From contig OZ024742.1 in NCBI GenBank assembly GCA_964016885.1, positions 293,508,001-293,572,000 on the forward strand: 64,000 nt of DNA, given 5' to 3'. The DNA is from Eledone cirrhosa (Eukaryota). Position numbers and translations under genes: made by a program. The stretch's first letter is position 1; each line of letters opens with the position of its first letter. The notes below the pieces were generated by a model. The model was not told the origin of the DNA. It made no database searches and saw only the letters and a list, made by a program, of their open reading frames with translations. Positions 5,061 through 52,790 of this stretch are shown piece by piece.

Positions 5061-7947
5061 TCATCATCATCATCATCATCATCAGGTTTAGCGTCCGTGT
5101 TCCACGCTTGCATGGGTTTGGACGGGGGTTTTCCCACTTGAGGCAAGAGTGGTTGTCTTGCTCGCATAGGACTGTCTGGCGGGTTTTCTACAGTTGGATG
5201 CCCTTCCTAACACCAACCACATTTACAGTGTGGGGCTGGGAGGTTTTTACCGTGTTGCCTACACGGCCACATTACAGCGTGGACTGTCTGGCGGGTTTTC
5301 TACAGCTGGATGCCCTTCCTAACACCAACCACATTTACAGTGTGGGGCTGGGAGGTTTTTACCGTGTTGCCTACACGGCCACATTTACAGCGTGGACTGT
5401 GTGTTTTTTGTCGTGACACCTACACGATCTCATTTGTTTCGGCCTGGATGTTGTGGGACCAACATAACTTTACATTGAAAGGGGCGGTGTGGGTGGGGTG
5501 GAGGTGGTGGGACGGGGGTGTGTTTTGATAGAGGTGCCTACTGACTGTAGTAGGTTTTTACTTTGTATTTAGGTAAGGCGGGTCTTCTCTATTACTGAGT
5601 ACCGCCAAAGGTCTCGGTCCAGTGACATTGTCTTGGAGTGGTGTAAGCGTGTGAGGTCGGAATTTATCAGCTCGTCCCATGTTTTTCTGGGTCTGCCTAC
5701 TCCGTGGCTACCGTCTATCTTTATTGCCCTGCACTTTGTTATACAGCTGTCGTCTTTCATGCGCATCACGTGACCGTACCAACGTAGCCTTCTCTCGAGT
5801 AAACAACATCTGATCCCTCTTATTTCTAATTTTTTCCTTAGTTCGTTTATGCTTTGCCGTTCACGTATATTACTATTGCACATCCAGCGGAGCATGCAAG
5901 CTTCGTTCCTCTCTAGTCTGCGTATATCCTCTGCACACAATGCCCAGGTCTCACTGCCATGCAGCATTGCTGTTCGTATGCAGGCATCGTATAACCTGCC
6001 TTTCATTTTTAGGGAGAACCCTCTAGCGGCTAATAGTGGTATAAGCTCTCTGAACTTTTTCCATCCAGTTCTGACTCTAGCTACTGTACTTTCAGAGCAC
6101 CCTCCCCCACTGCTGATTTTGTCACCCAGTTAACGGAAGCTGTCCACTATTTCTATAGAACCCTCTGCGCAGTTGAAGGAGCTAGTATTTTGTGGGCACT
6201 TGCTGCTACTTATTGCACCAGAGCACCGGCCACATGTAAAATCTATGTTCTTAGTTAGCTTACCTGTGATCCCACTACATCTTTTATGCACCCATACTTT
6301 GCATTTGGGACATAAAATGGAGTTTCTACCTACGCCTTTCCTACACACTGAGCATGGCCATTTCCCCGATGGGACCGCCGCCTTATTTTCTTTCCTACAA
6401 ACTAGAACTTTAGTCTTAGCCAGGTTAATTTTAAGGCCTTTTGATTCTAGGCCGTGCTTCCACGTTTGGAATTTCTTCTCTAGTTCGGTCATTGATTCAG
6501 CTATGAGCGTTAGATCATCTGCGTATAGGAGTTCCCATGGGCAGCCGGTCTTGAACTCCTCTGTTATAGCCTGAAGGGCAATAATAAATAGTAGGGGGCT
6601 AAGTACAGAGCCCTGATGGACACCAACTTTTACGCTAAACTCTTCACTATATTCGTTGTTAATTCTAACTTTACTGACTGTTTCTTTATACATGGCTTGT
6701 ATAGCTCTCACAAGCCATTCGTCAACACCTAGTTTTCTAAGAGACCACCAGATAATGGAACGGGGGACTCTGTCGAAGGCTTTCTCCAAGTCGACAAAAG
6801 CTAAGTATAGGGGTTTACTTTTAGCTAGGTACTTCTCCTGTAGTTGTCGTACAATGAAAAGAGCGTCTGTGGTACTTTTTCCTGACACAAACCCGAACTG
6901 CATTTCATCTAGATCAATTCTCTCTCTGATTAGTTGCGCTATTACTTTTTCCGTGACCTTCATGACCTGGTCGATTAATTTAATGCCTCTATAGTTACTC
7001 CTATCTAGGGCATCTCCTTTTCCCTTATAGCAGTTAACGATGATGCTGCTACGCCATTCCTTCGGAACAACCCCATTCTGTACGACTTGGTTAACTATCC
7101 GGGTGACCATGGTGTGTCCCACCGAACCAGATGCCTTCAGCATCTCAGCAACTATTTCCGAAGGCCCAGCCGCCTTACCCGTCTTCATATCTTTGATTGC
7201 CTTACTTATTATACTACCTTCAACTAACACTGCTGGTCCCTCTATTGGATCGATCTGGGGGAGACTGTCTTTCTCCCATTTGTTCTCCTCATTTAGAAGC
7301 CTTTCGTAGTGACACTTCCAAGCTACCTTCTTATCAGCGTCGGTGATGGCAAGTATGCCATCATCGTTAAGTACACACTTCTCCCCGACAATATCACGGT
7401 TTTCCTTGACACATTGCCTGGCAATCCTGAACACCTCACGTTTTTGGTCCTCACGTTGTAGAACATGCTTGAACTTTCTTTCCTCTGCTTCCCTTCTTGC
7501 GAAGTACACTTGTCTCCTAGCTTCCCTCCTGGCCACTTGATAGTCTTCTCTACTTCCCCCATCCCGCCATACTTTCCAAGCCTGCTTTTTGGCCTTAATT
7601 GACTCCTCCACCTTACTGTTCCACCACCATGTTACTCTCCTCCTACCTACAGGCCTGCTCCAGCCACAGACTTCGTCTGCCGCCGTCAGCAGGTTTACTC
7701 TCAGGAATTCCCACTGTTCCTCTATATTATACGACTCTAATTGCTCTTCCTTACTGTCGAAAGCGTCAAGTAATTTGCTTTGAAATTTATTTCTGGCTAT
7801 GGGGTCCTTTAGCTTCCATATTTTTCTCCTGAGGATAGTCCTCTTCCGCTGTCTAGTACGTCTCGTCCTGACTATGAGGTCGCTAATTATCAGTCTATGT
7901 TGGGAGGTGAATTCTTCATGGGGGTGGGATTTAGTGTTAACAACAGA
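5061..7947 (-). mobile_element. RTE-clade LINE copy A, 5'-truncated; RT + PHD finger; one nonsense codon at 6130-6132
   Basis: [55 protein letters not shown]; (GAT)n tail at 5061-5083; ORFs 6130.. and 5569.. share a frame. Confidence 0.95.
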
Positions 7948-8011
7948 AATATATATATATATATATATATCTATATATATATATATATATAAATATATAT
8001 TTATACATATA

Positions 8012-8042
<31 letters not shown>

Positions 8043-8120
8043 GCATATATATACATATATATATATACATAAATATATATATATATATATATACACAAAT
8101 ATATATATATATATATATAT

Positions 8121-8153
<33 letters not shown>

Positions 8154-8180
8154 CACAAATATATATATATATATATATAT

Positions 8181-8213
<33 letters not shown>

Positions 8214-8340
8214 CATACATACATATATATATATACATATATACATATATATATATATACATATATACATATATACATATATACATATATATATATACAT
8301 ATACATATATATATATATACATATATATATATACATATAC

Positions 8341-8391
<51 letters not shown>

Positions 8392-8719
8392 CATATATAT
8401 ACATATATATATATATATACATATATATACATATACATATATACATATATATATATATACATATACATACATACATCTATATATATATACATATATACAT
8501 ATATATACATATACATACATACATCTATATATATATACATATATATACATACATACATCTATATATATATATACATATACATACATACATCTATATATAT
8601 ATATACATATATATACATCCATACATCTATATATATATACATATATATACATACATACATCCATACATCTATATATATATATATATACATATATATATAC
8701 ATACATACATCCATACATC

Positions 8720-8751
<32 letters not shown>

Positions 8752-8872
8752 CATACATACATCCATATATATACATATATATATATATATACATATATAT
8801 ATACATATATATATATATACATACATCCATACATCTATATATACATATACATACATACATCTATATATATAT

Positions 8873-8929
<57 letters not shown>

Positions 8930-8993
8930 CATCTATATATACACATACATACATCCATACATCTATATATATATATATATACACATACATACA
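7948..8993. repeat. Degenerate (TA)n/(CATA)n tract
   Basis: Directly visible. Confidence 0.95.
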
Positions 8994-11642
8994 TCCGCCG
9001 TCGTTGTCGTCATCATCATCATCATCGTCATTTCATTTTACGTCCACTTTTACCTGCTTGCAAGGGTGGAACAGGAACTGATTCTGGCTTGATTTCTACA
9101 GCTGGATGCCCTTCCTAACACCAACCTCATTTACAGTGAGTGCTGGGTGCTTTTTCGTGGCGCCTACACGTCCACTTTACAGTGTGGGCTGGGTGCTTTT
9201 ATGCCGTGGCGCCTACATGACCACCTTGCGGTGGTGGGTGTGGGGGCATATTGTTTATATGCTTCAGCATGGACCCATGGGAGGTCGGGTACTCTGTATT
9301 ACTGCGTGACGCCAGAAGTCACGGTCGTGTGTCATTGTCTTTGAGAGGTGTAATTGGGTAAGGTCGGCTTTTATCACCTCATCCCAGGTCATCTTGGGTC
9401 TCCCCACTCCGCGGTTTCCATCAACTTCTAGTGCTCTGCACCTTTTTATGCAGCTGTCATCCTTCATACGCATCACATGTCCATACCAGCGCAACCGCCT
9501 CTCCTGCACACAGCATTTGATTCCTCTTATGCTCAGTCTCTCTCTCAATTCATTTATGCTTTGTCGTTCACGTATATTACTGTTACACATCCATCGGAGC
9601 ATGCAGGCTTCGTTTCTCTCTAATCTACGTAAGTCTTCCACCTTCAGCGCCCAGGTCTCACTACCATGCAACATCGCTGTTCGGATACACGCATCATACA
9701 GTCTGCCTTTCATTCTGAGTGAGAAGCCTGTTGCAGCTAGCAGTGGTAGTAGTTCCCTAAACTTCTTCCATCCCGTTCTTACCCTAGTTATTGTACTTTC
9801 TGAACACCCACCTCCGTTGCTAATTCAGTCACCTAGGTAGCAGAAGCTGTCTACTGTTTCTACAGGGCCCTCCCAGAGATTGGTGGTACTTGTTTCCTGT
9901 GGCTGTTTGCTGCTTGCTGTTTCAGCACAGCTGCTGCATGTGAATCCTACATTCTTAATTAAGCTTCCTGAGATCCCGCTACATCTCTTGTGTACCCATT
10001 GTTTGCATTTGGGGCAGAGAATGGAGTTCCTACCTACACCTTTCCTACATACTGAGCAAGGCCATTTCCCTGAGGGGATCTGGGTTCTGTTTTCTCGTCT
10101 ACTTACAAGGACCTTAGTCTTTGTCATGTTGACTTTGAGACCCTTTCTTTCTAGTCCCTGCTTCCAGGTTTGGAATTTATTCTCTAGTTCTACCATAGAT
10201 TCAGCTATGAGTGCGAGGTCATCAGCATACAGGAGTTCCCATGGGCATCCCGTCTTAAACTCCTCCGTTATTGCCTGCAGGACTATGATGAACAGGAGAG
10301 GGCTAAGAACAGAGCCCTGGTGGACCCCAACCTGTACGCTAAATTCCTCGCTATACTCATTGCTAATCCTAACTTTGCTGACTGCTCCCCTATACATGGC
10401 TTGTACCGCTTTCACAAGCCATTCATCTACTCCTAGTTTTCTAAGAGCCCACCAGATTACAACACGTGGAACTCTGTCAAAGGCTTTCTCAAGGTCGACA
10501 AATGACAAGTAGAGTGGCTTACTTTTAGCTAGGTACTTTTCCTGTAATTGCCTCACAAGGAAGAGGGCATCAGTGGTGCCTCTTCCTGGTACAAACCCAA
10601 ATTGCATCTCGTCTATTTTCACCCGGTCCCTAATCAGCTGTGCTATAACTCTTTCTGTTACTTTCATGACCTGGTCCATCAACTTTATACCTCTATAGTT
10701 TCCTCTATCTAGTGCATCGCCTTTACCTTTGTAGCAGTTGACAATGATGCTACTGCACCAATCTTTTGGTATGGCCGCTTCTAGTATTACCTGGTTAACG
10801 ATACGTGTGGTTATAGTGTGACCTACAGACTCAGATGCCTTCAGCATCTCGGCAGCTATACCCGATGGACCGGTTGCCTTCCCCATCTTCATATCTTTGA
10901 TTGCCTTACTTACTACGCTGCTGCTGACTTGTACTGCTGGTCCCTCTATAGTGTCTACTTGGGGTAGGGTCTCTTCTTCCCATGCATTCTCCTCATTTAG
11001 TAATCTATCATAATGACTCTTCCATGCATCTTTCTTCTCAGCACTTGTGAGGGCAAGCTCACCTTTATCATTCCGGATACACTTCTCTTCAATGACATCA
11101 CAACTATCTCTGACACACTGCCTCGCAATCTTGAATACCTCCTGTTTCTGGTCCCCACGTTGTAAAACATGCTTGAATTTTCTATCCTCTGCTTCCCTCC
11201 TAGCTAAGTATACTTGTCGCCTAGCTTCCCTCTTGGTCTCTATGTAATGTACCCTGCTCCCCCTGTTCTTCCATTCTTTCCATGCCTGTCTCTTGGCCTT
11301 AACTGCTTCATCTACCTTATTGTTCCACCACCAAGTCACTCTCCTCCTGCTTGAGGTCTTACTCCAGCCACAGACCTCATCCGTCGCCTCTAGTAAATTA
11401 TTTTTTAGGAACTCCCAGTTCTCTTCTACGTTAAATGTCTCTATCTGTTCTTCTTTAGTGTCGTAGGCGTTGAGTAAAATATCTTTAAATCTGTTACTGG
11501 TTGAGGGGACTTTCAGCTTCCAGATCTTTCTTCTCCAGGTTGGCCTCTGTTTCCGGGTTCGTCTAGTTCTGACCGTGAGGTCGCTGACAACTAAGCTATG
11601 TTGGGATGTACATTCCTCACTAGGGAAGGCTTTTGTGTTTAT
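8994..11642 (-). mobile_element. RTE LINE copy B (second subfamily), 5'-truncated; one TGA at 9825-9827
   Basis: Same RT motifs and PHD finger but diverged from A; ORFs 9825.. and 9264.. are in frame; (GAT)n tail at about 8994-9030. Confidence 0.95.
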
Positions 11643-11721: not shown

Positions 11722-12212
11722 TCTCCCTGCGTACGAAAGGCCGGTTGTATGATGCCTGTGTGAGGAGCGCGATGCTGCATGGTAGTGAGACATGGGCAGC
11801 AACCGCAGAGGATATGCAACGGCTGGAGAGAAATGAGGCAAGCATGCTCCGTTGGATGTGCAATAAAAATGTGTGTGAACGACCCAGCATAAATGTGTTG
11901 AGAGAGAAACTGTGTCTGAGAGGGATAGAATGTAGTGTACGGGAGAGGAGACTGAGGTGGTATGGACATGTGATGCGCATGGAGGATGACCGATGGGTGA
12001 AGAAGTGCCAGGAAATGCCAGTTGAAGGAAGACGTGGTAGAGGTAGACCACGAAAAACATGGGCGGAGGTGGTGAGAACAGACCTCAGATCATTGAAGCT
12101 CACGGTGGAGATGATGAGGGACCGCGACGAGTGGAGAGATGCTGTGCTGAATAAGACCCGTCCCACCCTTGCAAGCAGGGAAAAGCGGACGTAAAATGAT
12201 GATGATGATGAT
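11722..12212 (+). mobile_element. RTE LINE 3' fragment B2 (third subfamily, essentially no 3' UTR)
   Basis: [24 protein letters not shown]...GRPRKTW...[13 protein letters not shown] followed at once by (GAT)n. Confidence 0.92.
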
Positions 12213-12238
12213 ATATATACATACATACATATATATAC

Positions 12239-12273
<35 letters not shown>

Positions 12274-12352
12274 CATATATATATATATATATACATACAT
12301 ACATATATATGTATACGTACATATATATACATACATACATATATATATATAC

Positions 12353-12411
<59 letters not shown>

Positions 12412-12481
12412 CATACATACATATATATATATATACATACATACATATATATATACATACATATATATATATATACATACA

Positions 12482-12522
<41 letters not shown>

Positions 12523-12726
12523 ACATATACATACATATATATATATATATATACATATACATACATATATATATATATATACATATACATACATATATAT
12601 ATATATACATATACATACATATATATATATACATACATATATATATATATACATACATATATATATATATACATATACATACATATATATATATATATAT
12701 ACATATACATACATATATATATATAT

Positions 12727-12757
<31 letters not shown>

Positions 12758-12831
12758 CATACATATATATATATATATACATACCTATATATATACATAC
12801 ATATATATATATATATATACATACATATATA
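12213..12831. repeat. Degenerate (TA)n/(CATA)n tract
   Basis: Directly visible. Confidence 0.95.
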
Positions 12832-13440
12832 TGGCGGCTGCCAACTCGTTTTCGAGTACGGCCACTACTTTATATCCATGTAGGAGAACCCCTACCGATG
12901 CGCTGAACAAGTGTGGCTTTTTAGTCCAGCCAGCAACTTAAAAAATCTGGTACAAACACTACACTTGTGACAATTATTAACACATAGTGCTGGGCCCATG
13001 GTACCATGTGACGACAAGTGCAGAGAGATCTCCACATATAAAGCAATGCCTGTGCCGTGAAGCTTTTATAGTGAGCTAAGGCACTGCACAAAGCCAGTCC
13101 CACTCTCTTAACCAAGATGATATTTACCAAAAAGAAGAACAAGTCAACATCATTGGATACCATCAGGGTTGCAGGTGTTATATCAGAGTTTTCCTTCTCC
13201 TAGAATTCTGCCTTGACAAAGGCTAAGGGGTCATCTCTCCCGGTGATTTTGGATGGCCATTGACTCTTAAGAGATCCTTTGCCCTTTGACAGGTTTTGTT
13301 TTTAGTCCTGCAGAATGTCCAAAGTCACCCTCCTCACCAAGAAACCTTGGTGGGGTTGCCAGTTTAGTCGCCAACGACCCGGCCATGGGACAGGTTGTAC
13401 TGGGATACATGTTACCAGTAGCACCAACTGGTGACCTGAC
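12832..13440 (-). mobile_element. Putative bipartite non-autonomous RTE derivative (5' UTR fused to C2H2-finger C-terminus and 3' end)
   Basis: Minus strand has the RTE 5'UTR-like motif ctaggagaaggaaaactctga; 12963-12892 translates [23 protein letters not shown]; a related 3'-end motif recurs at 13451-13482. Confidence 0.55.
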
Positions 13441-13499
13441 ATATATACATGATGGCTGCCCCCTCGTTATCGAGTATGGCCATTGCACAAGAAAAAAAA

Positions 13500-14206
<707 letters not shown>

Positions 14207-17200
14207 TCATCATCATCATCATCATCAACGTTTAACGTCCGTGTTCCACGCTTGCATGGGTTTGGACGGGGGTAGTCCCACTTGAGGCAAGAGTGATTGT
14301 CTTGCTCGCATAGGACTGTCTGGCAGGTTTTCTACAGTTGGATGCCCTTCCTAACACCAACCACATTTACAGTGTGGGTCTGGGAGGTTTTTACTGTGTT
14401 GCCTACACGGCCACATTACAGCGTGGACTGTGTGTTTTTTTTGTCGTGACACCTACACGATCTCATTTGTTTCGGCCTGGATGGCGCGGCACCAACATAA
14501 CTTTACATAGGACGGGGTGGTGTGGATGGGTGGGGGTGGTGGCGGGACGGGGTGTATTTTGTTAGAGATGCCTACTGGCAAGGCGGGTCTTCTCTGTTAC
14601 TGAGTACCGCCAAAGGCCTCGGTCCAGTGACATTGTCTTGGAGAGGTGTAAGTGTGTGAGGTCGGAGTTTATCAGCTCGTCCCAGGTTTTTCTAGGTCTG
14701 CCTATTCCGTGGCTACCGTCTATCTTTATTGCCCTGCACTTTGTTATACAGCTATCGTCTTTCATGCGCATCACGTGTCCATACCAACGTAGCCTTCTCT
14801 CGAGTAAACAACATCTGATCCCTCTTATCTCTAATTTTTCCCTTAGTTCGTTTATGCTTTGCCGTTCACGTATATTACTGTTACACATCCAGCGGAGCAT
14901 GCAAGCTTCGTTCCTCTCTAGTCTGCGTATATCCTCTGCACACAATGCCCAGGTCTCACTGCCATGCAACATTGCTGTTCGTATGCAGGCATCGTACAAC
15001 CTGCCTTTCATTTTTAGGGAGAACCCTTTAGCAGCTAATAGTGGTATAAGTTCTCTGAACTTTTTCCAACCAGTTCTGACTCTAGCTACAGTACTTTCAG
15101 AGCACCCTCCCCCACTGCTGATTTTATCGCCCAGGTAACGGAAGCTGTCCACTATTTCTATAGAACCCTCTGCGCAATTGAAAGAGCTAGTATTTTGTGG
15201 GCACTTGCTGCTACTTATTGCACCAGAACACCGGCCACATGTAAAATCTATGTTCTTAGTTAGCTTACCTGTGATCCCACTACATCTTTTATGCACCCAT
15301 ACTTTGCATTTAGGACATAAAATGGAGTTTCTACCTACGCCTTTCCTACACACCGAGCACGACCATTTCCCAGAAGGGACCGCCGCCTTGTTTTCTTTCC
15401 TACAAACTAGAACTTTGGTCTTAGCCAGGTTAATTTTAAGTCCTTTTGACTCTAGGCCGTGCTTCCATGTTTGGAATTTCTTCTCTAGCTCGGCCATTGA
15501 TTCCGCTATGAGTGTCAGGTCGTCTGCGTATAGGAGTTCCCATGGGCAGCCTGTCTTGAACTCCTCTGTTATAGCCTGAAGGGCAATAATAAATAGTAGG
15601 GGGCTGAGAACAGAGCCCTGATGGACGCCAACTTTTACGCTAAACTCTTCACTATATTCGTTGTTAATTCTAACCTTGCTGACTGTTTCTTTATACATGG
15701 CTTGTATGGCCCTCACAAGCCATTCGTCAACGCCTAGTTTTCTAAGAGCCCACCAGATAATGGAGCGGGGGACTCTGTCGAAGGCTTTCTCCAGGTCGAC
15801 AAAAGCTAAGTAGAGGGGTTTACCTTTAGCTAGGAACTTCTCCTGTAGTTGTCGTACTATGAAAAGAGCGTCTGTGGTACTTTTTCCTGACACAAACCCG
15901 AACTGCATTTCATCTAGGTCAATTCTCTCTCTGATTAGTTGCGCTATTACTTTTTCCGTGACCTTCATGACCTGGTCGATTAATTTAATGCCTCTATAGT
16001 TACTCCTATCTAGGGCGTCTCCTTTACCCTTATAACAGTTAACGATGATGCTGCTATGCCAGTCCTTCGGAACAACCCCATTCTGTACGACTTGGTTAAC
16101 TATGCGGGTGACCATGGTGTGTCCCACCGTGCCAGATGCCTTCAGCATCTCAGCAACTATTTCCGAAGGCCCAGCCGCCTTACCTGTCTTCATATCCTTG
16201 ATTGCCTTACTTATTATACTCCCCTCGACTAACACTGCTGGTCCCTCTATTGGGTCGACATGGGGGAGACTGTCTTTCTCCCATTTATTCTCCTCATTTA
16301 GTAGCCTTTCATAGTGACACTTCCAAGCTACCTTCTTATCAGTGTCGGTGATGGCAAGTATGCCATCATCGTTAAGTACACACTTCTCCCCGACAATATC
16401 ACGGTTTTCCTTGACGCATTGCCTAGCAATCCTGAACACCTCACGTTTTTGGTCATCGCGTTGTAGGACATGCTTGAACTTTCTTTCCTCAGCTTACCTT
16501 CTTGCTAAGTACACTTCTCTCCTAGCTTCCCTCCTGGCCACTTGATAGTCTACTCTACTTCCCCCATCCCGCCATACTTTCCAAGCCTGCTTTTTGGCCT
16601 TAATTGACCCCTCCACCTTACTGTTCCACCACCATGTTACTCTCCTCCTGCCTACAGGCCTGCTCCAGCCACAGACTTCGTCTGTCGCCAACAGCAGGTT
16701 TGCTTTCAGAAATTCCCACTGTCCCTCTATATTGTCCGACTCTAAATGTTCTTCCTTACTGTCGAAAGCATCAAGTAATATGTTTTGAAATTTATTTTTG
16801 GCTGTGGGGTCCTTTAGCTTCCATATTTTTCTCCTGAGGATAGTCCTCTTCTGCTGTCGAGTACGTCTCGTCCTGACTATGAGGTCGCTAATTATCAGTC
16901 TATGTTGGGAGGTGCATTCTTCATGGGGGAGGGATTTAGTGTTTACAACAGACACTCTGTCACGTCTTCTGGTAAGGATATAATCTACCTGGCTTGTGTG
17001 TTCCCCGGATCTATAGGTGATCAGGTGATTGTCACGTTTTTTGAAGTTAGTGTTACAGATAGTTAGGTTATTTGCATCACAGAATTCCAGGATTCTGGAG
17101 CCTTCCTCATTTCTAGTACCAAACCCATAGCCTCCATGGATTTCGTCGTAGCCGTCACAATGTTGCCCAACGTGACCATTTAGGTCGCCTGCAATAATTA

Positions 17201-17465
17201 TATAGTCACTGTCAGATATTTGGGAGGTAGTGAGCATCAGTGTCTCATAGAATCTGTCTTTTATAGTGCCGGGCAGTCCGGATTGGGGTGCGTACGCAGA
17301 TATTACTGTCACCGTAGTTCTATTGAGGACAAGTCGTATTTTAATTATTCTGTCGTTCACTCTATTTACGTCTATTATCTTATCTGCCCACTTTTCTGCT
17401 ACCATGATTCCTACTCCACCCAGCCCATCGTCGTTTCCCACCCAGAAAAGCTTATAACATCGTTA
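14207..17465 (-). mobile_element. RTE LINE copy C, near-complete (most of APE + RT + PHD); one TAA at 16494-16496
   Basis: [29 protein letters not shown] (APE) followed in frame by RT; (GAT)n tail; very similar to A. Confidence 0.96.
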
Positions 17466-17788
17466 CATATATACATATATATATATACCCATATATACAT
17501 ATATACATATATATATATACACATATATATATACATACACATATATATATACATACACATATATATATACATACACATATACATATACATACACATATAT
17601 ATATACATATATATATATACATATATATATATATGCATACACATATATATATACATACACATATATATATACATACACATATACATATACATACACATAT
17701 ATATATACATATATATATATACATATATATATATATGCATACACATATATATACACATATATATACACATATATATATACATATATAA

Positions 17789-17857
<69 letters not shown>
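17466..17857. repeat. Degenerate (TA)n/(CATA)n tract
   Basis: Directly visible. Confidence 0.95.
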
Positions 17858-17858
<1 letters not shown>

Positions 17859-20800
17859 CATCATCATCATCGTTTAACGTCCATCTTCCACACTTGCATG
17901 GGTTTGGACGGAAATTTTCCCACTTGAGGCAAGATTGGTTGACTTGCTCGTATAGGACTGTCTGGCGGGTTTTCTATGGCTGGATGCCCTTCCTAATACC
18001 AACCACGTTTACAGTCTGGACTGGGAGGTTTTTATCGTGTTACCTACACGACCTCATTTGTTGTGACACCTACACGACCTCATTTGTTTCGGCCTGGATG
18101 TGGTGTTACCAACATAACTTTACATTGAAAGGGATGGTGTGGATGGGGTGGGGGTAGTGGGACGGGGATGTATTTTGTTAGAATTGCCTACTGACTGTAG
18201 GTTTTGCTTTGTACTTAGGCAAGGCGGGTCTTCTGTATTACTGTGTAGCGCCAAAGATCTTGGTCCTGTGACATTGTCTTGGAGAGGTGTAAGTGTGTCA
18301 GGTCGGAATTTATCAAGTCGTCCCAGGTTTTTCTGGGTCTGCCTACTCCGTGTCTACCGTCTATTTTTATCGCCCTGCACCTTTTTATACAGCTGTCGTC
18401 TTTCATGCGCATCACGTGACCGTACCAACGTAGTCTTCTCTCAAGTAAACAACATCTGATCCCTCTTATTCCTAATTTCTCCCTGAGTTCGTTTATGCTT
18501 TGCCATTCACGTATATTACTATTACACATCTAGCAGAGCATGCAAGCTTCGTTCCTCTCCAGTCTGCGTATATCCTCTGCACACAATGCCCAAGTCTCAC
18601 TGCCATGTAACATTGCTGTTCGTATGCAGGCATCATACCTTTCATTTTTAGAGAGAACCCAATAGTGGTATAAGCTCACTGAACTTTTTCCATCCCGTTC
18701 TGACTCTAGCTACTGTACTTTCAGAGCACCCTCCACCACTGCTGATTTAGTCACCCAGGTAATGGAAGGTGTCCACTATTTCTATAGAACCATCTGCACA
18801 ATGGAATGAGCTAGTATTCTGTGGGCACTTGCTGCTACTTATTGCACCTGAGCACCGGCCACATATAAAGTCTACGTTCTTAGTTAGCTTACCTGTGATC
18901 CCACTACATCTTTTATGCACCCATACTTTGCATTTTGGACATAAAATGGAGTTTCTGCCTACTCCTTTCCTACACACTGAGCATGGCCATTTCCCAGATG
19001 GGACCGGTGCCCTATTTTCCTTCCTACAAACTAGAAATTTAGTCTTAGACAGGTTAATTTTAAGGCCTTTTGATTCTAGGCCATGCTTCCATGTTTAGAA
19101 TTTCTTCTGTAGTTCAGCCATTGATTCAGCTATGAGCGTTAGATCATCTGCGTATAGGAGTTCCCATGAGCAGCCGGTCCTGAACTCCTCTGTTATAGCC
19201 TGAAGGGCAATAATAAATAGTAGGGGGCTAAGGACGGAGCCCTGATGAACACCAACTTTTACGCTAAACTCTTCACTATATTCGTTGTTAATTCTAACTT
19301 GCTGACTGTTTCTTTATACATGCCTTGTATAGCTCTCACAAGCCATTCATCAACACCTAGTTTTCTAAGAGCACACCAGATAATCGAGCGGGGTACTCTG
19401 TCAAAGGCTTTCTCCAAGTCAACAAAAGCTAAGTATAGGGGTTTACTTTTAGCTAGGTACTTCTCCTGTAGTTGTCGTACAATGAAAAAAGCGTCTGTGG
19501 TACTTTTACCTGACACAAACCCGAACTGCATTTCATCTAGATCAATTCGCTCTCTGAGTAGTTGCGCTATTACTTTTTATGTGACCTTCATGACCTGGTC
19601 GATTAATTTAATGCCTCTATAGTTACCCCTATCTAGGGCATCTCCTTTACTCTTGTAGCAGCTAATGATGATGCTGCTGCGCCAGTCCTTTGGAACGACC
19701 CCATTCTGTATGATTTGGTTTACTATCTGTGTGACCATAGTGTGTACCACCGTTCCAGATGCTTTCAGCATTTCAGCAACTATTTCCTAAGGCCCGGCCG
19801 CCTTACCCGTCTTCATATCTTTGATTGTTTTACTTATTATACTACCTTCAACTTGCACTGCTGGTCCCTCTATTGGATCGATGTGGGGGAGACTGTCTTT
19901 CTCCCATTTATTCTCCTCATTTAGTAGCCTTTCGTAGTGACACTTCCAAGCCTACCTTCTTATCAACGTCAGTGATGGCAAGTACACCATCATCATTCAA
20001 GACACACTTCTTCCCGACAATATCACAGTTTTCCTCGACACATTGCCTAGCAATCTTGAACACCTCACGTTTTTGGTCCTCACGTTGTAGAACATGCTTG
20101 AACTTTCTTTCCTCTGCTTCCCTTCTTGCGAAGTACACTTGTCTCCTAGCTTCCCTCCTGGCCACTTGATAGTGTTCTCTACTTCCCCCATCCCGCCATA
20201 CTTTTCAAGCCTGCTTTTTGGCCTTAATTGACTCCTCCACCTTACTGTTCCACCACCACGTTACTCTCCTCCTGCCTATAGGCCTGCTCCAGCCACAGAC
20301 TTCATCTGCCGCCTTCAGCAGGTTAGCTTTCAGGAATTCCCACTGTTCCTCTATATTGTACAACTAATTGCTCTTCCTTACTGTCAAAAGCATCAAGTAA
20401 TATGCTTTTAAATTTAAATTTATTACTGGCTGTGGGGTCCTTTAGCTTCCATGTTTTTCTCCTGCGGATAGTCCTCCTCTGTTGTCGAGTACGTCGTACG
20501 TTTTGTCCTGACTATGAGGTCACTGACTATGAGTCTATGTTGGGAGGTGCATTCTTCATGGGGGAGGAATTTAGTGTTTACAACAGACACTCTATCACGT
20601 CTTCTGGTAAGGATATAATCTATCTGACTGGCGTGTTCCCCTGATCTATAGGTGATCAAGTGATTGTCTAGTTTTTTGAAGTTAGTGTTACAAATAGTTA
20701 GGTTATTTGCGTCACAGAATTCCAGGATTCTGGAGCCTTCCTCATTTCTAGTACCAAACCCATAGCCTCCATGGATTTCGTTGTAGCCGTCACAATGTTG

Positions 20801-23775: not shown

Positions 23776-25028
23776 CCTGGCTAAGACTAAAGTTCTAGTT
23801 TGTAGGAAAGAAAATAAGGCGGCGGTCCCTTCTGGGAAATGGTCGTGCTCGGTGTGTAGGAAAGGCGTAGGTAGAAACTCCATTTTATGTCCTAAATGCA
23901 AAGTATGGGTGCATAAAAGATGTAGTGGGATCACAGGTAAGCTAACTAACAACATAGATTTTACATGTGGCCGGTGCTCTGGTGCAATAAGTAGCAGCAA
24001 GTGCCCACAAGATACTAGCTCTTTCAATTGCGCAGAGGGTTCTATAGAAATAGTGGACAGTTTCCGTTACCTGGGTGGTAAAATCAGCAGTGGGGGAGGG
24101 GTGCTCTGAAAGTACAGTAGCTAGAGTCAGAACTGGTTGCAAAAAGTTCAGAGAGCTTATACCACTATTAGCTGCTAAAGGGTTCTCCCTAAAAATGAAA
24201 GGCAGGTTGTACGATGCCTGCATACGAACAGAAATGTTGCATGGCAGTGAGACCTGGGCATTGTGTGCAGAGGATATACGCAGACTAGAGAGGAACGAAG
24301 CTTGCATGCTCCGCTGGATGTGTAACAGTAATATACGTGAACGGCAAAGCATAAACGAACTAAGGAAAAAATTAGAAATAAGAGGGATCAGATGTTTACT
24401 CGAGAGAAGGCTACGTTGGTATGGACACGTGATGCGCATGAAAGTCGATAGCTGTATAACAAAGTGCAGGGCAATAAAGATAGACGGTAGCCACGGAATA
24501 GGCAGACCTAGAAAAACCTGGGACGAGCTGATAAACTCCGACCTCACACACTTACACCTCTCCAAGACAATGTCACTGGACCGAGACCTTTGGCGGTACT
24601 CAGTAACAGAGAAGACCCGCCTTACCTAAATACATAGTAAAACCTACTACAGCCAGTAGGCATCTCTAACAAAATACACCCCCGTCCCACCACCACCACC
24701 CCCACCCCATCCACACCACCCCGTTCTATGTAAAGTTATGTTGGTGCCGCGCCATCGAGGCCGAAACAAATGAGATCGTGTAGGTGTCACGACAAAAAAA
24801 CACACAGTCCACGCTGTAATGTGGCCGTGTAGGCAACACGGTAAAAACCTCCCAGACCCACACTGTAAATGTGGTTGGTGTTAGGAAGGGCATCCAGCTG
24901 TAGAAAACCTGCCAGACAGTCCTATGCAAGCAAGACAATCACTCTTGCCTCAAGTGGGACTACCCCCGTGCAAACCCATGCAAGCGTGGAACACGGACGT
25001 TAAACGTTGATGATGATGATGATGATGA
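23773..25028 (+). mobile_element. RTE LINE copy E (A/C subfamily), 5'-truncated, frameshift in a G-run near 24100
   Basis: [15 protein letters not shown]...MKGRLYD...EKTRLT*, 3' UTR as in C, (GAT)n tail, (TA)n on both sides. Confidence 0.94.
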
Positions 25029-31836: not shown

Positions 31837-32016
31837 TATATATATATTATATATATATATATATATTATATATATTATATATATATATATTATATATATA
31901 TATAATATATATATATATAATATATATATATATAATATATATATATATAACCCAAGGGCGGTGCCCCAGCATGGCCTCAGCCGGATGGCTGAAACAGGTA
32001 AAAGAGTAATATATAT

Positions 32017-32337
32017 ATGGCTTAGTGGTTAGAGCATTGGCCTTGCAATCGAAAGGTTGTGAGTTCAATTCTCAGACTGGGTGCTGTGTTGTTTCCTTGG
32101 GCAAGACACTTTATTTCACATTGCTCCAGTTTACTCAGCTGTAGAAATGAGATGATAGGGAATGGGGTCCCTATCATTCCACTGCAAAGTGGTCGTGGAG
32201 GTGCCACGGCAAAAAAGCACCCAGCACTCACTGTAAATGAGGTTGGTGTTAGGAAGGGCATCCAGCTGTAGAAATCAAGCCAGAATCAGTTCCCGTCCCA
32301 CCCTTGCAAGCAGGGAAAAGTGGACGTAAAATGGTGA
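32017..32337 (+). mobile_element. tRNA-derived CORE-like SINE with RTE-type tail
   Basis: A box tggcttagtgg, B box gagttcaattc, CORE-like ccttgggcaagacacttt...cagtttactcagctgtagaaatg, tail shared with LINEs B/B2. Confidence 0.88.
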
Positions 32338-36682: not shown

Positions 36683-37423
36683 TTATTTAAGATTAAAGAA
36701 CCTCATTATAACCTCACCAAAATACTCGACAGCCAGCAGTTAAAGAAAATGTTTACCTTTAAAAAATCCGAAATGACGCCAGTAGCAAACTAAAGTTCCT
36801 GCAATTTGATATACATAACTATTATGCTTCTATCTCTCCTCTCCTTGATAAAGTTTTGTCATTTGTTGCTGATCTTACTGATATTACTCAAATTGAAATA
36901 GATACACTTTTACTAGCTAGAAGAATTATAATAGAATTTAATGGGGATCTATGGACTAGGAAGGATCGTCCGAATAACTTTGATGTCACTGTGGGTTCTA
37001 GTGACTCGGCCTAAGTGACTGATTTGGTTGGATTATTTATTCTAGATGAACTTAAGGCCAATTTTCCTACTATCGGGGGGAGGATTATACCGCTTGATGC
37101 TCTCTTTACTTTTGAAAATTATTTTAAATCAGCTTTAGAGAGTGTTAGAAAACATCTACAAAATTCTTTAAAGAATATGATTTAACAGTTACAATTGATA
37201 ATAATGATAGGGTTGTTAATTTCTTAGATGTCAGTTTAAACCTAAATTATCATTCCTTCCAACCATACCATAAACCTGGTGAGGTTCTATTTTATGTTAA
37301 TAAATACTCTAACCACCCTAAATCTATTAAAAATGCAATAATCAATAATATTTCTAATAGAATAAATTCTCTTTCGACAAATATTGATGTTTTTAATCAG
37401 AATACTAATTACTATAATGAGGC

Positions 37424-37745
37424 ACATGGCTTAGTGGTTAGAGCATTAGCATTGCAATCGAAAGGTTGTGAGTTCAATTCTCATACTGGGTGATGTGTTG
37501 TTTCCTTGAGCAAGACACTTTATTTCACATTGCTCCAGTTTACTCAGCTGTAGAAATGAGATGATAGGGACTAGGGTCCCTATCATTCCACTGCAAAGTG
37601 GTCGTGGAGGTGCCACGGCAAAAAAGCACCCAGCACTCACTGTAAATGAGGTTGGTGTTAGGAAGGGCATCCAGCTGTAGAAATCAAGCCAGAATCAGTT
37701 TCCGTCCCACCCTTGCAAGCAGGGAAAAGGCGGACGTAAAATGAA

Positions 37746-39538: not shown

Positions 39539-39706
39539 GTAAATGAGGTTGGTGTTAGGAAGGGCATCCAGCTGTAGAAATCAAGCCAAATCAGTTCCTG
39601 TATGAGCAAGGCATGGTCAGCCGACCAGACACTGCCCACAACAGGACAACCCATCTAACCCATGCTAGCGTGGAAGAACGGACGTAAAACAGTGATGATG
39701 ATGATG
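39539..39706 (+). mobile_element. SINE/LINE 3' fragment with a third tail variant (longer copy at 47248-47481)
   Basis: gaggttggtgttaggaagggcatccagctgtagaaatc...cccatgctagcgtggaagaacggacgtaaaacagtgatgat. Confidence 0.8.
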
Positions 39707-43963: not shown

Positions 43964-43973
43964 TATATATATA

Positions 43974-44865
43974 TCATCATTTTACGTCCGCTTTTCTCTG
44001 CTTGCAAGGGTTGGATGGGTCCTATTCAGCACAGCATCTCTCCACTTGTCACGGTCCTTCGTCATCTCCTCGGTGAGTTTCAGCGAACTGAGGACTGCTC
44101 TCACCACCTCCGCCCATTTTTTCCTGGTCTACCTCTTCTGCGTCTTCCTTCTACTTGGATTTCTTGGCACTTCTTTACCTAGCGGTCATCCTCCATGCGC
44201 ATCACATGTCCATACCATCTCAGCCTTCTCTCCTGCACACCACAACTTATCCCTCTTATACCCAGTTTCTTTCTCAACTCGTCTATGCTAGGTCGTTCAC
44301 GCACATTGGCATTGCACATCCAATGGAGCATACTTGCTTCATTTCTCTCCAGCCATCGCATATCTTCTACAGTTGTTGCCCATGTCTCACTACCATGCAG
44401 CATCGTGTATCTCACACAGGCATCATATAACCGTCCTTTCGTACGCAGTACGCAAGGAGAAACCCTTCTTAGTCAACAGAGGAAGCAGCTCCCTAAACTT
44501 CTTCTAACCCATCCTTATTCTAGATACTATGGCCTCGGAACACACCCCCTCCCATGCTAATCTGATCACCTAGGTACCGGAAGCTATCAACCACTTCCAT
44601 AGAACCCACCTGCATTGGAAAAATGTGTCTATCACTGCGATTACTACTGCCAACTTCCCCTGTACATCTACTGCGTACGTAGTTTTCCCTACCTGTTAGT
44701 TTGCCTGCTATCCCACTACATCTCTTGTGTACCCAAGATCTGCATTGCATGCATTTTATGGAATTTATGCCAGTTCCTTTCCTACATATCGAACATGGCC
44801 ATTTCCCCGATGGAATCAGAGTATTGTCCTCTCTTTTAATTATCAACACTTTTGTTTTAGCTATG
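43974..44865 (-). mobile_element. RTE LINE copy F (B2-like subfamily), 5'-truncated and decayed
   Basis: IAKTKVL..SGKWPCSICRKG...[30 protein letters not shown]; B2-type terminus. Confidence 0.9.
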
Positions 44866-47221: not shown

Positions 47222-49191
47222 TATATTACATATACATATATATATACACGGCAAAAAAGCACCCAGCCCACACTGTGAAGTGGACGTGTAGGCGCCACGG
47301 AAAAAGCACCTACCACTCACTGTAAATGAGGTTGGTGTTAGGAAGGGCATCCAGCTGTAGAAATCAAGCCAAAATCAGTTCCTGTATGAGCAAGGCATGG
47401 TCAGCCGACCAGACACTGCCCACAACAGGACAACCCGTCTAACCCATGCTAGCATGGAAGAACGGACGTAAAACGGTGATGATACACACACACACCATAT
47501 ATATATATATACGCAAGTATTCATACACATACATATGTATATATGTGTGTATAAAAGATATCTCTATATATACGTATCTTTCATACACACACATTTATAC
47601 ACGCACACATATATATATATTCATACACACACAAACACATCCTGTACCAGCACCATCAATAGTGACAAATAAATTGCAAAATCAAATATATTGATAAAGG
47701 TTGTTTGTATTATTTGCATGATACTATATTATAGATGAATAATTGAATTCTTCTGATTAGGCAGGTCTCAGATTTACAATGGAGATGAAATGAAATCAGA
47801 ATACCTATTATGTTTAATAAAATGGGAAAAAAAAATTGATCATATCCACCCTTCTGGGAACCTATATCATCCTTCTCAATACTTGTAAATAATTAAAGCA
47901 GCCAATATTTTACTAACATCTATAAACTTTCCTTCGTAAATCATCTTTAAACCTTCGCCTACGGTCAACTGTTACACCTCTGGTCTCTTTAACTACTACT
48001 TCTACAATAACGCTGGTTGCATCAAAAGACCCATTACTTACTATCCCCTCCCTCTATCTATCCCCCCTCTCTATCTCTCTCTGACATACACACACACAAC
48101 TAATAGCTATTGTTATATCTTCTTTCAAGCTTCTTATGCTCTGCTATGTTACTTGCCTTTAACTACATCAATCTAAAACTTACTCCCAAGCTATAAATAT
48201 AGCCTTAGCAATTATCTAAGACACATATTTCCCAACTAACACCGATACAATATTAGATTTAATGAAGTTGTTGACACTGTCATGAATAATGACCACTGGT
48301 GAAACCTCACTGACCAGTGTTGAGTGGTCAACAAATTGTATGTTGTTATAACCCTTTACAAAAATCGAAGACAAAGATGAAATGAACAACTAGTAAATTT
48401 TAACATATTTATTTGACTTAAAATCAATATCATTAATTTTATCTATTATCTCCAGTAGGAAATTAGGAGCTGTAGTACAAGGGCCAATGCTACCATTAAA
48501 GCCAAGTAAGTAGCCATCTAGGGTGCAGATCTCACACAGACACATTACTGAATCTTAAGGGATCACAGTAATATACAAATTTATATAACTAACTTAAATA
48601 TATAATTTCCTGTTTTACAACCTGTCTAACCTATGTTATCGTGGAAAATAGACATTAAACGATGATGATGATAAATAAATCTCAAAACGTATTTGCTGCA
48701 TAACATTGTTGAAATATCCAAAGTTGTGTTGGGGTGGAATGAGCAGGGTGGTTTGAAAATCAGTAATTTTTCTAGGTTGTTTCTGTTGAGTGTTTTTAAA
48801 ACCAGTATTAGTCGTTTAGTTTACATATTGAAACCCCAACCCATCCTATTTATTTTATAACATATGAGATTTCTAGTAATGTACTTTTTTTGTCATGTAT
48901 AATGTTTTTTAATGTCTAAAGAAAATTTATTGTCGCAGGAATACTAGCACTTGAAATAAAATTTCACTGGAGATAGATTAGCAAAATTTAAGAGTGGGGG
49001 GGATAAGAGAGGGGGGGGGGGGGGGTTCAAAAAATCTGAAACAGGGGGAGGGGGGGGATTATTCTAGACCAGAGAGTAAATACATAAATACTTTTATTCT
49101 CAAGAGTTATATATAATTTCTTTTAAATTTATTCTACTGATTTATAAAAATGACCATCAATTTATTAATGATTAGTAATTAATAATTATTA

Positions 49192-52469: not shown

Positions 52470-52790
52470 ATCATCATCGTTTTTTACGTCTGTTTTTCCA
52501 TATTTGCATGGGTTAGAAGGATCCTGTTCAGCTCAGCATCTCTCCACCCATTGCATTCCTTCATCATCTCCTCTTTGAGTCTCGGTGATTTGAGATCAGC
52601 TCTCATCACCTCTGCCCAGGTCTCCCTTGGTTTATCTCTACTGTGGCTTCCTTCCACTGGGATTTCTTGGCACTTCTTCATCTAGCCATTATCATCCATG
52701 TACATAACATGTCCATACAAATGCAGTCTTCTCTCTTACACACCCTTTTGGATTCCTGCTAAACCCAGCTTCTCCCTCAGTTATCAAAGC
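52470..52790 (-). mobile_element. RTE 3' fragment (B2-like); another at about 58590-58805 (+)
   Basis: MKKCQEIPVEGSHSRDKPRETWAEVMRADL. Confidence 0.8.

Follow-up and report, generated by a model that had tools for sequence, protein, structure and literature searches.

Probable transfer of SINE-type 3' ends onto LINE B copies in the genome of Eledone cirrhosa

Stringent partnerships between LINEs (long interspersed nuclear elements) and SINEs (short interspersed nuclear elements) are marked by a shared 3' stem-loop, as in the eel pair UnaL2/UnaSINE1 and in zebrafish ZfL2. Tail replacement in CORE-SINEs was reportedly noticed by Gilbert and Labuda, and the octopus CORE-SINE OR2 is said to go back to Ohshima and Okada in 1994 (as cited in PMC4758252). 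An exchange of tails leaves older LINE-derived sequence behind as the 'body' of the SINE, and template switching has been proposed to underlie it (Kojima 2018, PMC5786205). Most conserved SINE bodies are described there as being of unknown origin, their donor LINEs being gone (PMC5786205), and an Ingi LINE of Aplysia is suggested to have recombined with a Ceph-SINE as the source of its SINE-like sequence (Kojima, PMC5786205). Joins between the two kinds of element are also known from a set of 452 Alu/LINE-1 chimeras, such chimeric insertions being attributed to template switching by the reverse transcriptase or to RNA ligation (PMC13174262), and a LINE of the RTE clade, RTE-2_OV, has been described from octopus (Petrosino 2022, PMC9115989). 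Here we describe an exchange of 3' modules seen in 64,000 nucleotides (nt) of Eledone cirrhosa DNA (GenBank assembly GCA_964016885.1, contig OZ024742.1, positions 293,508,001 to 293,572,000, forward strand; hereafter the window, to which all plain coordinates refer) and followed through the genome. At its centre stands a copy of a LINE that we call LINE B (8994-11620, minus strand), whose 3' end is of a type carried by an abundant SINE and by a related LINE, B2. SINE-type 3' ends have probably been joined to LINE B bodies repeatedly, on several backgrounds, as far as the comparison of sequences can tell.

The system resembles that of Kojima 2018 in having a SINE built of a tRNA head, a CORE, a stretch of one LINE and the terminal tail of another, and in the involvement of RTE-like LINEs that end in microsatellites. 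It differs in that the retained middle piece comes here from the 3' untranslated region (UTR) of a LINE and there from a 5' UTR, and in that both partner LINEs and both stages of the SINE are found here in one genome, so that the join can be read to the base (CCCGT). With the LINE/SINE chimeras it shares a 5'-truncated LINE body with SINE sequence on its 3' side in the same orientation, and the fact that such products are recurrent and rare. However, the switch would lie here in register, inside sequence that the SINE owes to an earlier copying from this LINE family, and the product is an intact-looking LINE with a different terminus rather than a LINE with an appended SINE. As in the stringent pairs, the last ~45 nt are common to SINE and B2, with a short conserved hairpin and a simple-repeat tail, but the hairpin here has 5 bp and one compensatory change, and its recognition by an enzyme is here a sequence-based proposal. 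RTE-2_OV as described likewise has a single frame with endonuclease and reverse transcriptase as well as a zinc finger, and CORE-SINEs are known in octopus; by description rather than by sequence, it differs from LINE B and the related LINE A in that these have a long 3' UTR. The LINEs of the window appear to be RTE-like and the SINE a CORE-SINE. Tail exchange and LINE/SINE chimeras are both known kinds of event, of which the present case is a variant. The coexistence of all stages is unusual, as is a SINE that would carry the terminus of one LINE onto copies of another.

The window copy of LINE B is 5'-truncated and adjoins a microsatellite at its 5' end. Its body (9264-11620), a frame with reverse transcriptase and PHD finger, contains one internal stop, closes with the stop codon at 9264-9266 and is 97-100% identical to ordinary LINE B in every bin of 150 columns. 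The 230-nt UTR (9034-9263) opens with ~30 nt present in the LINE only (gaagcatataaacaatatgccccc..., 9235-9263), which served as the anchor for genome-wide counts, and continues with two ~50-nt units, a block, a short spacer and the terminus. Unit 1 (ccaccgcaaggtgg..., 9170-9234) includes the left edge of the homology between LINE and SINE and holds changes private to this copy, for which reason we rejected it as the canonical LINE B state. Unit 2 (gtgtaggcgccacgaaaaagcacccagcactcactgtaaatga, 9127-9169) has the state CACG-A5 of young LINE B. The 34-nt block (ggttggtgttaggaagggcatccagctgtagaaa, 9093-9126) is identical or nearly so across A-type UTRs, B-type UTRs and the SINE, and, with up to three mismatches allowed, the window contains 11 matches to it where 0 are expected. 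There follow the marker gccagAatcag (9078-9088), a SINE-type state that reads gccagatcag in young ordinary LINE B, and a short terminus of the SINE/B2 type (cctgttccacccttgcaagcaggtaaaagtggacgtaaaatg, 9034-9075, ~42 nt) with a 5-bp hairpin CCTTG-CAAG-CAGG(g>t), here in the variant 'cctgtt...aaaagtgg'. The copy ends in an (ATG)n-type simple repeat, aaatgacga(tga)n (8994-9033), which starts as 'gtaaaatg' followed directly by 'aaatga' and has the form TGAAATGA after GTAAAA. Common to this copy, the SINE tails and the end of the B2 frame are the final ~45 nt (cc[c/t]gt[c/t]ccacccttgcaagcagg.aaaag.ggacgtaaaatg).

This end is not that of the family. At 29 of 29 other LINE B loci fetched by the junction of open reading frame (ORF) and UTR, the element finishes in a different, long terminus, and in all 29 the UTR runs from 'cagttcctgt' through a 53-nt spacer into it. 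We refer to LINE B copies with the long or the short terminus as LINE-long and LINE-short, and to the corresponding SINEs as SINE-long and SINE-short. Exact patterns with an anchor found only in the LINE or only in the SINE were counted genome-wide, each with a reversed-pattern control that gave 0. The LINE-only UTR anchor with the long terminus occurs 9,651 times and with the short terminus 57 times, plus 4 at longer gaps, or ~0.6% of LINE B 3' ends; the proportions are inverted in the SINE, with 103 long and 15,493 short termini. The window copy is thus atypical for its family. Two 5'-truncated fragments on the plus strand of the window show the ordinary LINE B end, one with the block and the long terminus (39539-39696), the other with both units, the block and the long terminus (47248-47480). 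Five of the LINE-short copies (L116-L120, G000:C25, 20.1-22.8 Mb) are near-identical and have an internal UTR deletion, a truncated terminus and their flank in common, being segmental duplicates rather than separate insertions. A further element (L107, G000:C17:12568745-12571853) has at least five tandem ~50-nt UTR units before the block and the short terminus, so unit number varies in the manner of a minisatellite.

An earlier note, made from the sequence of the window, had proposed that the ~230-nt UTR of LINE B matches the entire post-CORE half of the SINE. Such a match exists, the UTR aligning from 9234 down to 9034 with the SINE sequence at 32175-32333 and at ~37585-37743, with two ~50-nt units in LINE B and one in the SINEs of the window, so that ~160 nt of SINE are aligned to ~200 nt of LINE. 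The ORF-UTR junction, whose uniqueness to this locus would by the note's own account have refuted its proposal, is a family feature: it was spanned whole in 40 of 40 scored hits (1,396 candidates), in line with the 9,651 patterns in the genome. As the note had also observed, the block is found with a different terminus in LINEs A, C and D and in the copy at 24573-25012, and the third form, present at 39547 and 47330, belongs to the two LINE B fragments above. Its label of the block as Nin-domain-like is not supported, since no common run was visible by eye with Lottia_Nin, the one Nin-DC sequence compared (PMC4758252 supplement).

The SINE is represented in the window by two copies of its one-unit form with the short terminus, both on the plus strand and with the same layout (32018-32333 and ~37420-37743): a tRNA-like head, the CORE and then a ~30-nt spacer, one unit, the block, a spacer and the terminus of B2 type. 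A query of this kind was spanned whole in 40 of 40 scored hits (759 candidates). The Rfam tRNA model scores the head (32016-32079) at 28.4 bits (E = 6e-4), just below its gathering score of 29, and ARAGORN found no tRNA in the SINE heads. By eye, the CORE 'tccttgggcaagacactttatttcac...ctgtagaaatgag' resembles that of oyster Cgi_CORE_1, 'TCCTTGGGAAAGACACTTTACATG...GTGTAAAATGGG' (PMC4758252, supplement file 4), and it contains CCTTGGG, a motif named in PMC5786205. The 13-mer CAGCTGTAGAAAT stands both at the end of the CORE (32135-32150) and in the LINE block (9093-9110; LINE A 5297-5310). Of 500 shuffles each, one equalled the score of the likeness of CORE and block for B, one did so for A and 45 for C, and the sharing of CAGCTGTAGAAAT could be chance or a recombination hot spot.

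By sequence match, the 3' part of the SINE is LINE-derived, its body corresponding to the LINE B UTR and its tail to the B2 terminus. As a measure of age we took 30 copies per class in genome order and averaged their pairwise distances across the 100 nt that precede the terminus. SINE-long stands highest at 8.6%, followed by SINE-short (5.6%), LINE-short (4.1%) and LINE-long (2.0%), and the median distance for B2 is 2.0%. Since the oldest class of the SINE carries the long terminus of LINE B, the SINE appears first to have carried the LINE B UTR together with the LINE B terminus; indeed, 28 of 30 SINE-long loci extend upstream into CORE and tRNA-like sequence. We infer that the first step was a capture of the classical kind, from LINE to SINE. 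In the common one-unit SINE the start of unit 1 is joined to the end of unit 2 as a hybrid unit, and two-unit SINEs occur with either terminus.

The SINE would then have changed its tail. The termini of LINE A, LINE-long and B2 are mutually homologous, and those of SINE-short and B2 are identical except for one C/T site. As the frames of B and B2 are only 67% identical, a terminus so close to that of B2 is foreign to B and native to B2. In B2, as the earlier note had claimed for the terminal ~45 nt of the SINE, the frame reads through the terminus, with its stop at 12192-12194, so that a coding terminus of a LINE forms the tail of the main SINE subfamily and the broader proposal that 3' modules move between elements is borne out. 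Many SINE-long copies read ..ttcCCGTatgagc.. at the join, B2 reads ..agaCCCGTcccaccc.. and SINE-short reads ..ttcCCGTcccaccc.., from which the swap of tails would have occurred at the shared 5-nt word CCCGT. In the terminus hairpin, 95.4% of cells are paired across its 5 bp, and one pair is changed on both sides, from AU to UG.

Several lines of evidence suggest that this SINE-type end subsequently reached LINE B. Aligned, the window copy resembles LINE B as far as ~9150, in the A-run of unit 2, and the SINE from 9088 on, which places a probable crossover to SINE-type sequence between these two points. Its terminus, 'cctgttccaccc..aaaagtgg', is that of a SINE subtype (L246; L234 and L235 are duplicates of one insertion). 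Its nearest relative in a tree is a long-terminus LINE B that is 98% identical over 576 columns, and in a tree built without the terminus it groups among the young long-terminus copies. Young backgrounds were those with the young LINE B states CCGCAAGG and CACG-A5. On them, gccagAatcag is the spacer marker in 6 of 6 short-terminus copies and in 0 of 15 long-terminus copies (Fisher p ~2e-5), all 15 of which have gccagatcag or gccaaatcag instead. By this SINE-state marker, the replaced stretch begins upstream of the terminus in a part of the element missing from B2, and the donor of these ends accordingly had the UTR. Similarly, the tail form gtaaaaTGAAATGA is found in 14 of 30 LINE-short and 11 of 30 SINE-short copies and in none of 30 B2 copies. 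The joins do not trace to a single background either: on the terminus-free tree of 30 LINE-short and 30 LINE-long copies, the terminus label needs 12 changes, at least five of them forced by well-supported branches, with an average of 20 for shuffled labels. Orientation was the same and the join in register in the 30 of 57 LINE-short copies that were fetched and aligned. One further copy (L138, identical to L283, G000:C2:373352773-373355828) has the LINE B frame end and the LINE-only UTR start, then the SINE-only spacer gggtccctatcatt and, past it, units, block and long terminus; by exact pattern it is the sole such copy in the genome, and we rejected the idea that the spacer is a relic of an old LINE B UTR on account of that single occurrence.

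Taken together, the likely route of the short terminus runs from B2 to the SINE and from there to LINE B. In the scheme that we favour with fair, though far from full, confidence, the window holds a young ordinary LINE B body whose last 60-125 nt became SINE-type when reverse transcription started on SINE RNA and switched to LINE B RNA. Such a scheme comprises three steps: the LINE B UTR would pass to the SINE, the B2 terminus would pass to the SINE by the join at CCCGT, and the SINE-type end would pass to occasional LINE B copies, the enzyme changing template inside the ~200 nt that both RNAs share. The 5-bp terminal hairpin may be the feature that reverse transcriptases recognise, in which case the new tail would hand the SINE, and the chimeric LINE copies with it, over to the enzyme of B2. 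The earlier note had gone further in proposing that autonomous LINEs re-acquired whole SINE bodies as their 3' UTRs. Flow from SINE to LINE is probably real, judging from the joins, and limited to the last 60-125 nt and to ~0.6% of copies; for the ~230-nt UTR as a former SINE body the proposal does not hold, given the homology with LINE A and the single clade described below.

Several observations weigh against a transfer from SINE to LINE B. Where the homology has its left edge, ten of the 24 scorable LINE-short copies, which are older, carry the SINE-like CTGCAAAG. They may represent an old LINE lineage that received the B2 terminus first and then passed it to the SINE, and it could be from such a LINE, instead of the SINE, that the young chimeras took it. 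The SINE as donor is argued from its abundance (15,493 against 57) and from one subtype match, and exact-anchor counts under-count old copies and include some segmental duplicates (L116-L120, L234/L235). The tree of LINE-short and LINE-long copies contains 5'-truncated rows with foreign flank and long branches, and 34 of its 57 inner branches are weak. The covariation in the hairpin is a single event between lineages, and whether the long UTR, taken up below, was gained or lost depends on rooting the tree at its most distant row.

It is possible, then, that modules moved only in the classical direction: an old LINE B sublineage would have taken the B2 terminus and become the parent of SINE-short, and the young short ends would stem from RNA recombination between LINEs. 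The ten copies with CTGCAAAG would fit such a history, as would the 'G+A6-8' that several LINE-short copies show in unit 2, as in two-unit SINEs, the placement of LINE-short copies with SINE-like states in the older part of the tree, and the existence of old long-terminus LINE B copies with SINE-like markers (L208, L211). However, SINE-long is the oldest class (8.6%), and LINE-short, at 4.1%, is not older than SINE-short, at 5.6%. It is also not evident on this account why the short end should sit on at least five separate LINE B backgrounds or why the end of the window copy should match a SINE subtype. The copy L138/L283 indicates that SINE-only sequence can reach a LINE B UTR, and SINE RNAs with the short end would outnumber such LINEs by ~270:1 on exact counts. 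We therefore regard a purely classical history as unlikely, while holding it to be the strongest of the alternatives.

Transfer of SINE-type ends could also have involved the same donors without reverse transcription, through ectopic gene conversion or through unequal recombination among copies in the genome. The exchanged segment lies within ~200 nt of >90% identity, the (ATG)n repeats could have provided a second homology arm, and unit number changes by unequal exchange, as the one-unit, two-unit and multi-unit forms and L107 attest. Template switching is indeed indistinguishable here from gene conversion at the DNA level, which is a further point against the scheme above. However, the form of the tail beside the terminus changes together with the terminus, and template switching by LINE reverse transcriptases as well as LINE/SINE and LINE/small-RNA chimeras are documented (PMC13174262, PMC4758252). 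By analogy with this known behaviour of LINE enzymes, template switching is the likely mechanism, and an exchange between genomic copies appears a little less probable still than the classical history.

To whom the long UTR belongs can be judged from the related LINEs. LINEs A, B and B2 are single-frame elements whose last ~600 residues are 78% identical in amino acids between A and B and 67% between either and B2; A and C are 97% identical over the same length. Pfam finds an endonuclease (Exo_endo_phos_2, E = 2.8e-8), a reverse transcriptase (RVT_1, E = 1.8e-32) and a PHD finger, and all three are present in LINEs A, B, C and B2. The LINE A copy (5079-7920, minus strand) has a UTR (5079-5568) with units, the block twice and an A-type terminus, and LINE C, of the A family (14223-17860, minus strand), has a homologous long UTR (14223-14561). 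The doubled block of LINE A stems from a ~112-nt tandem duplication of unit and block (5167-5345, minus strand; blocks at 5185-5218 and 5297-5330) that is present as one copy in LINE C. Against shuffles, the alignment of A-type and B-type UTRs gives z = 26 upstream of the block and 23.5 downstream; this homology on both sides indicates that the plan of two units, block and terminus is older than the split of A and B.

A search with the C-terminal 150 residues through ~970 kb of fetched loci and the window recovered older A-like and B-like families with the long UTR, together with three compact-ended relatives (52484-52780, L135 and L171) in which, as in B2, the frame leads straight into the hairpin of the terminus and on to (ATG)n. 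A very short UTR with a simple-repeat end, as is typical of RTE-clade LINEs (see also PMC9115989), is found in B2 and these three relatives and not in A and B, whose UTRs measure 230-490 nt. In the tree of C-termini, 10 long-UTR LINE rows form one clade (100/100), with five compact-ended rows outside that are paraphyletic when the tree is rooted on the most distant row. That the 10 long-UTR LINEs fall in one clade argues that the UTR belongs to the LINE lineage; the alignments indicate that it is native there and the donor of the SINE body, and it is probably a single derived feature of the A+B clade. With the outgroup LINEs compact-ended, there is no sign of an ancestral long UTR that B2 would have lost, which had been the other way in which the earlier note's proposal might have failed. 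That LINE B took the entire ~230-nt UTR from the SINE body is suggested by the end-to-end match of UTR and post-CORE half in the window and by the want of a long UTR in LINEs outside the A+B clade, which means that it was gained at some point, but it is highly improbable, since LINE A and older A-like and B-like families have the same UTR plan, diverged in step with their frames, since the SINE body is B-like rather than A-like and was thus copied after the A/B split, and since in LINE B the units number two, ~30 nt of LINE-only UTR lie upstream of them, the SINE-only spacer is found in just 1 copy, and the long terminus stands on 9,651 ends against 103 SINEs.

The compact-ended elements are themselves well represented. 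The B2 copy of the window (11722-12198, plus strand) is 5'-truncated, and its frame passes through the terminus into (ATG)n. The B2 junction was spanned whole in 40 of 40 scored hits (488 candidates) and is present in 30 of 30 loci, and a 32-mer across the frame-terminus junction has 4,341 genomic occurrences. The same junction of frame and terminus is present in a B2-like copy that is older and decayed (43973-44860, minus strand). The remnant at 52484-52780 (minus strand) stems from yet another related LINE; its 3' end is compact, it is 58% identical to B2 in amino acids, and it has its own hairpin variant, cccatgcaaatatgg. A further idea, that B2 is non-autonomous, 1.3 kb long and fixed at its 5' end, was rejected, since the query copy (L035, identical to L151, G000:C6:95346300-95351100) has a 5' inversion and 14 other B2 copies extend upstream into reverse-transcriptase sequence. 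At its 5' end that copy repeats its own initial ~50-100 nt in inverted form, which looks like a twin-priming-type 5' inversion. In LINE C, ~25-28 nt are lacking just after ..KTRL (14530-14561, compared with 5540-5568 in A and 18180-18215 in D, all on the minus strand). Its frame consequently reads ..KTRLASRHL*, resembling ..TLASR.. of B2, and the likeness of cttgccagtagg to the B2 hairpin, cttgcaagcagg, is weak. Where the frames of A, B and C end, a possible remnant of the compact terminus was not significant for A or B, and the score for C was reached by 71 of 2,000 shuffles. In the window, most LINE tails and 5' truncation points are bordered by long microsatellites of the (TA)n and (CATA)n types (1-2600, 7900-8990, 12200-14200 and elsewhere), which produce long spurious open frames and a chance mir-297 hit.

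A more far-reaching scenario is that 3' modules cycle both ways within this clade of LINEs. The long UTR of A and B would be a one-time extension of a compact, B2-like ancestor, and the SINE would return the B2 terminus to LINE B RNAs, so that LINEs are cross-mobilised and switch partner. We regard this scenario as speculative and rather doubtful. If it is true, an autonomous LINE would gain the recognition tag of a rival LINE's enzyme, a switch of partner like that of SINEs. Surviving together in E. cirrhosa are the donor LINE, the SINE with the donor's terminus, the SINE with the tail of a second LINE and the rare LINEs with a SINE tail. Since all stages survive, they provide a readable example of module exchange, in which exchange probably was not strictly one-way and by which the standard LINE-to-SINE model is not overturned. 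They also make a natural testing ground for the 3' elements that the individual reverse transcriptases recognise.

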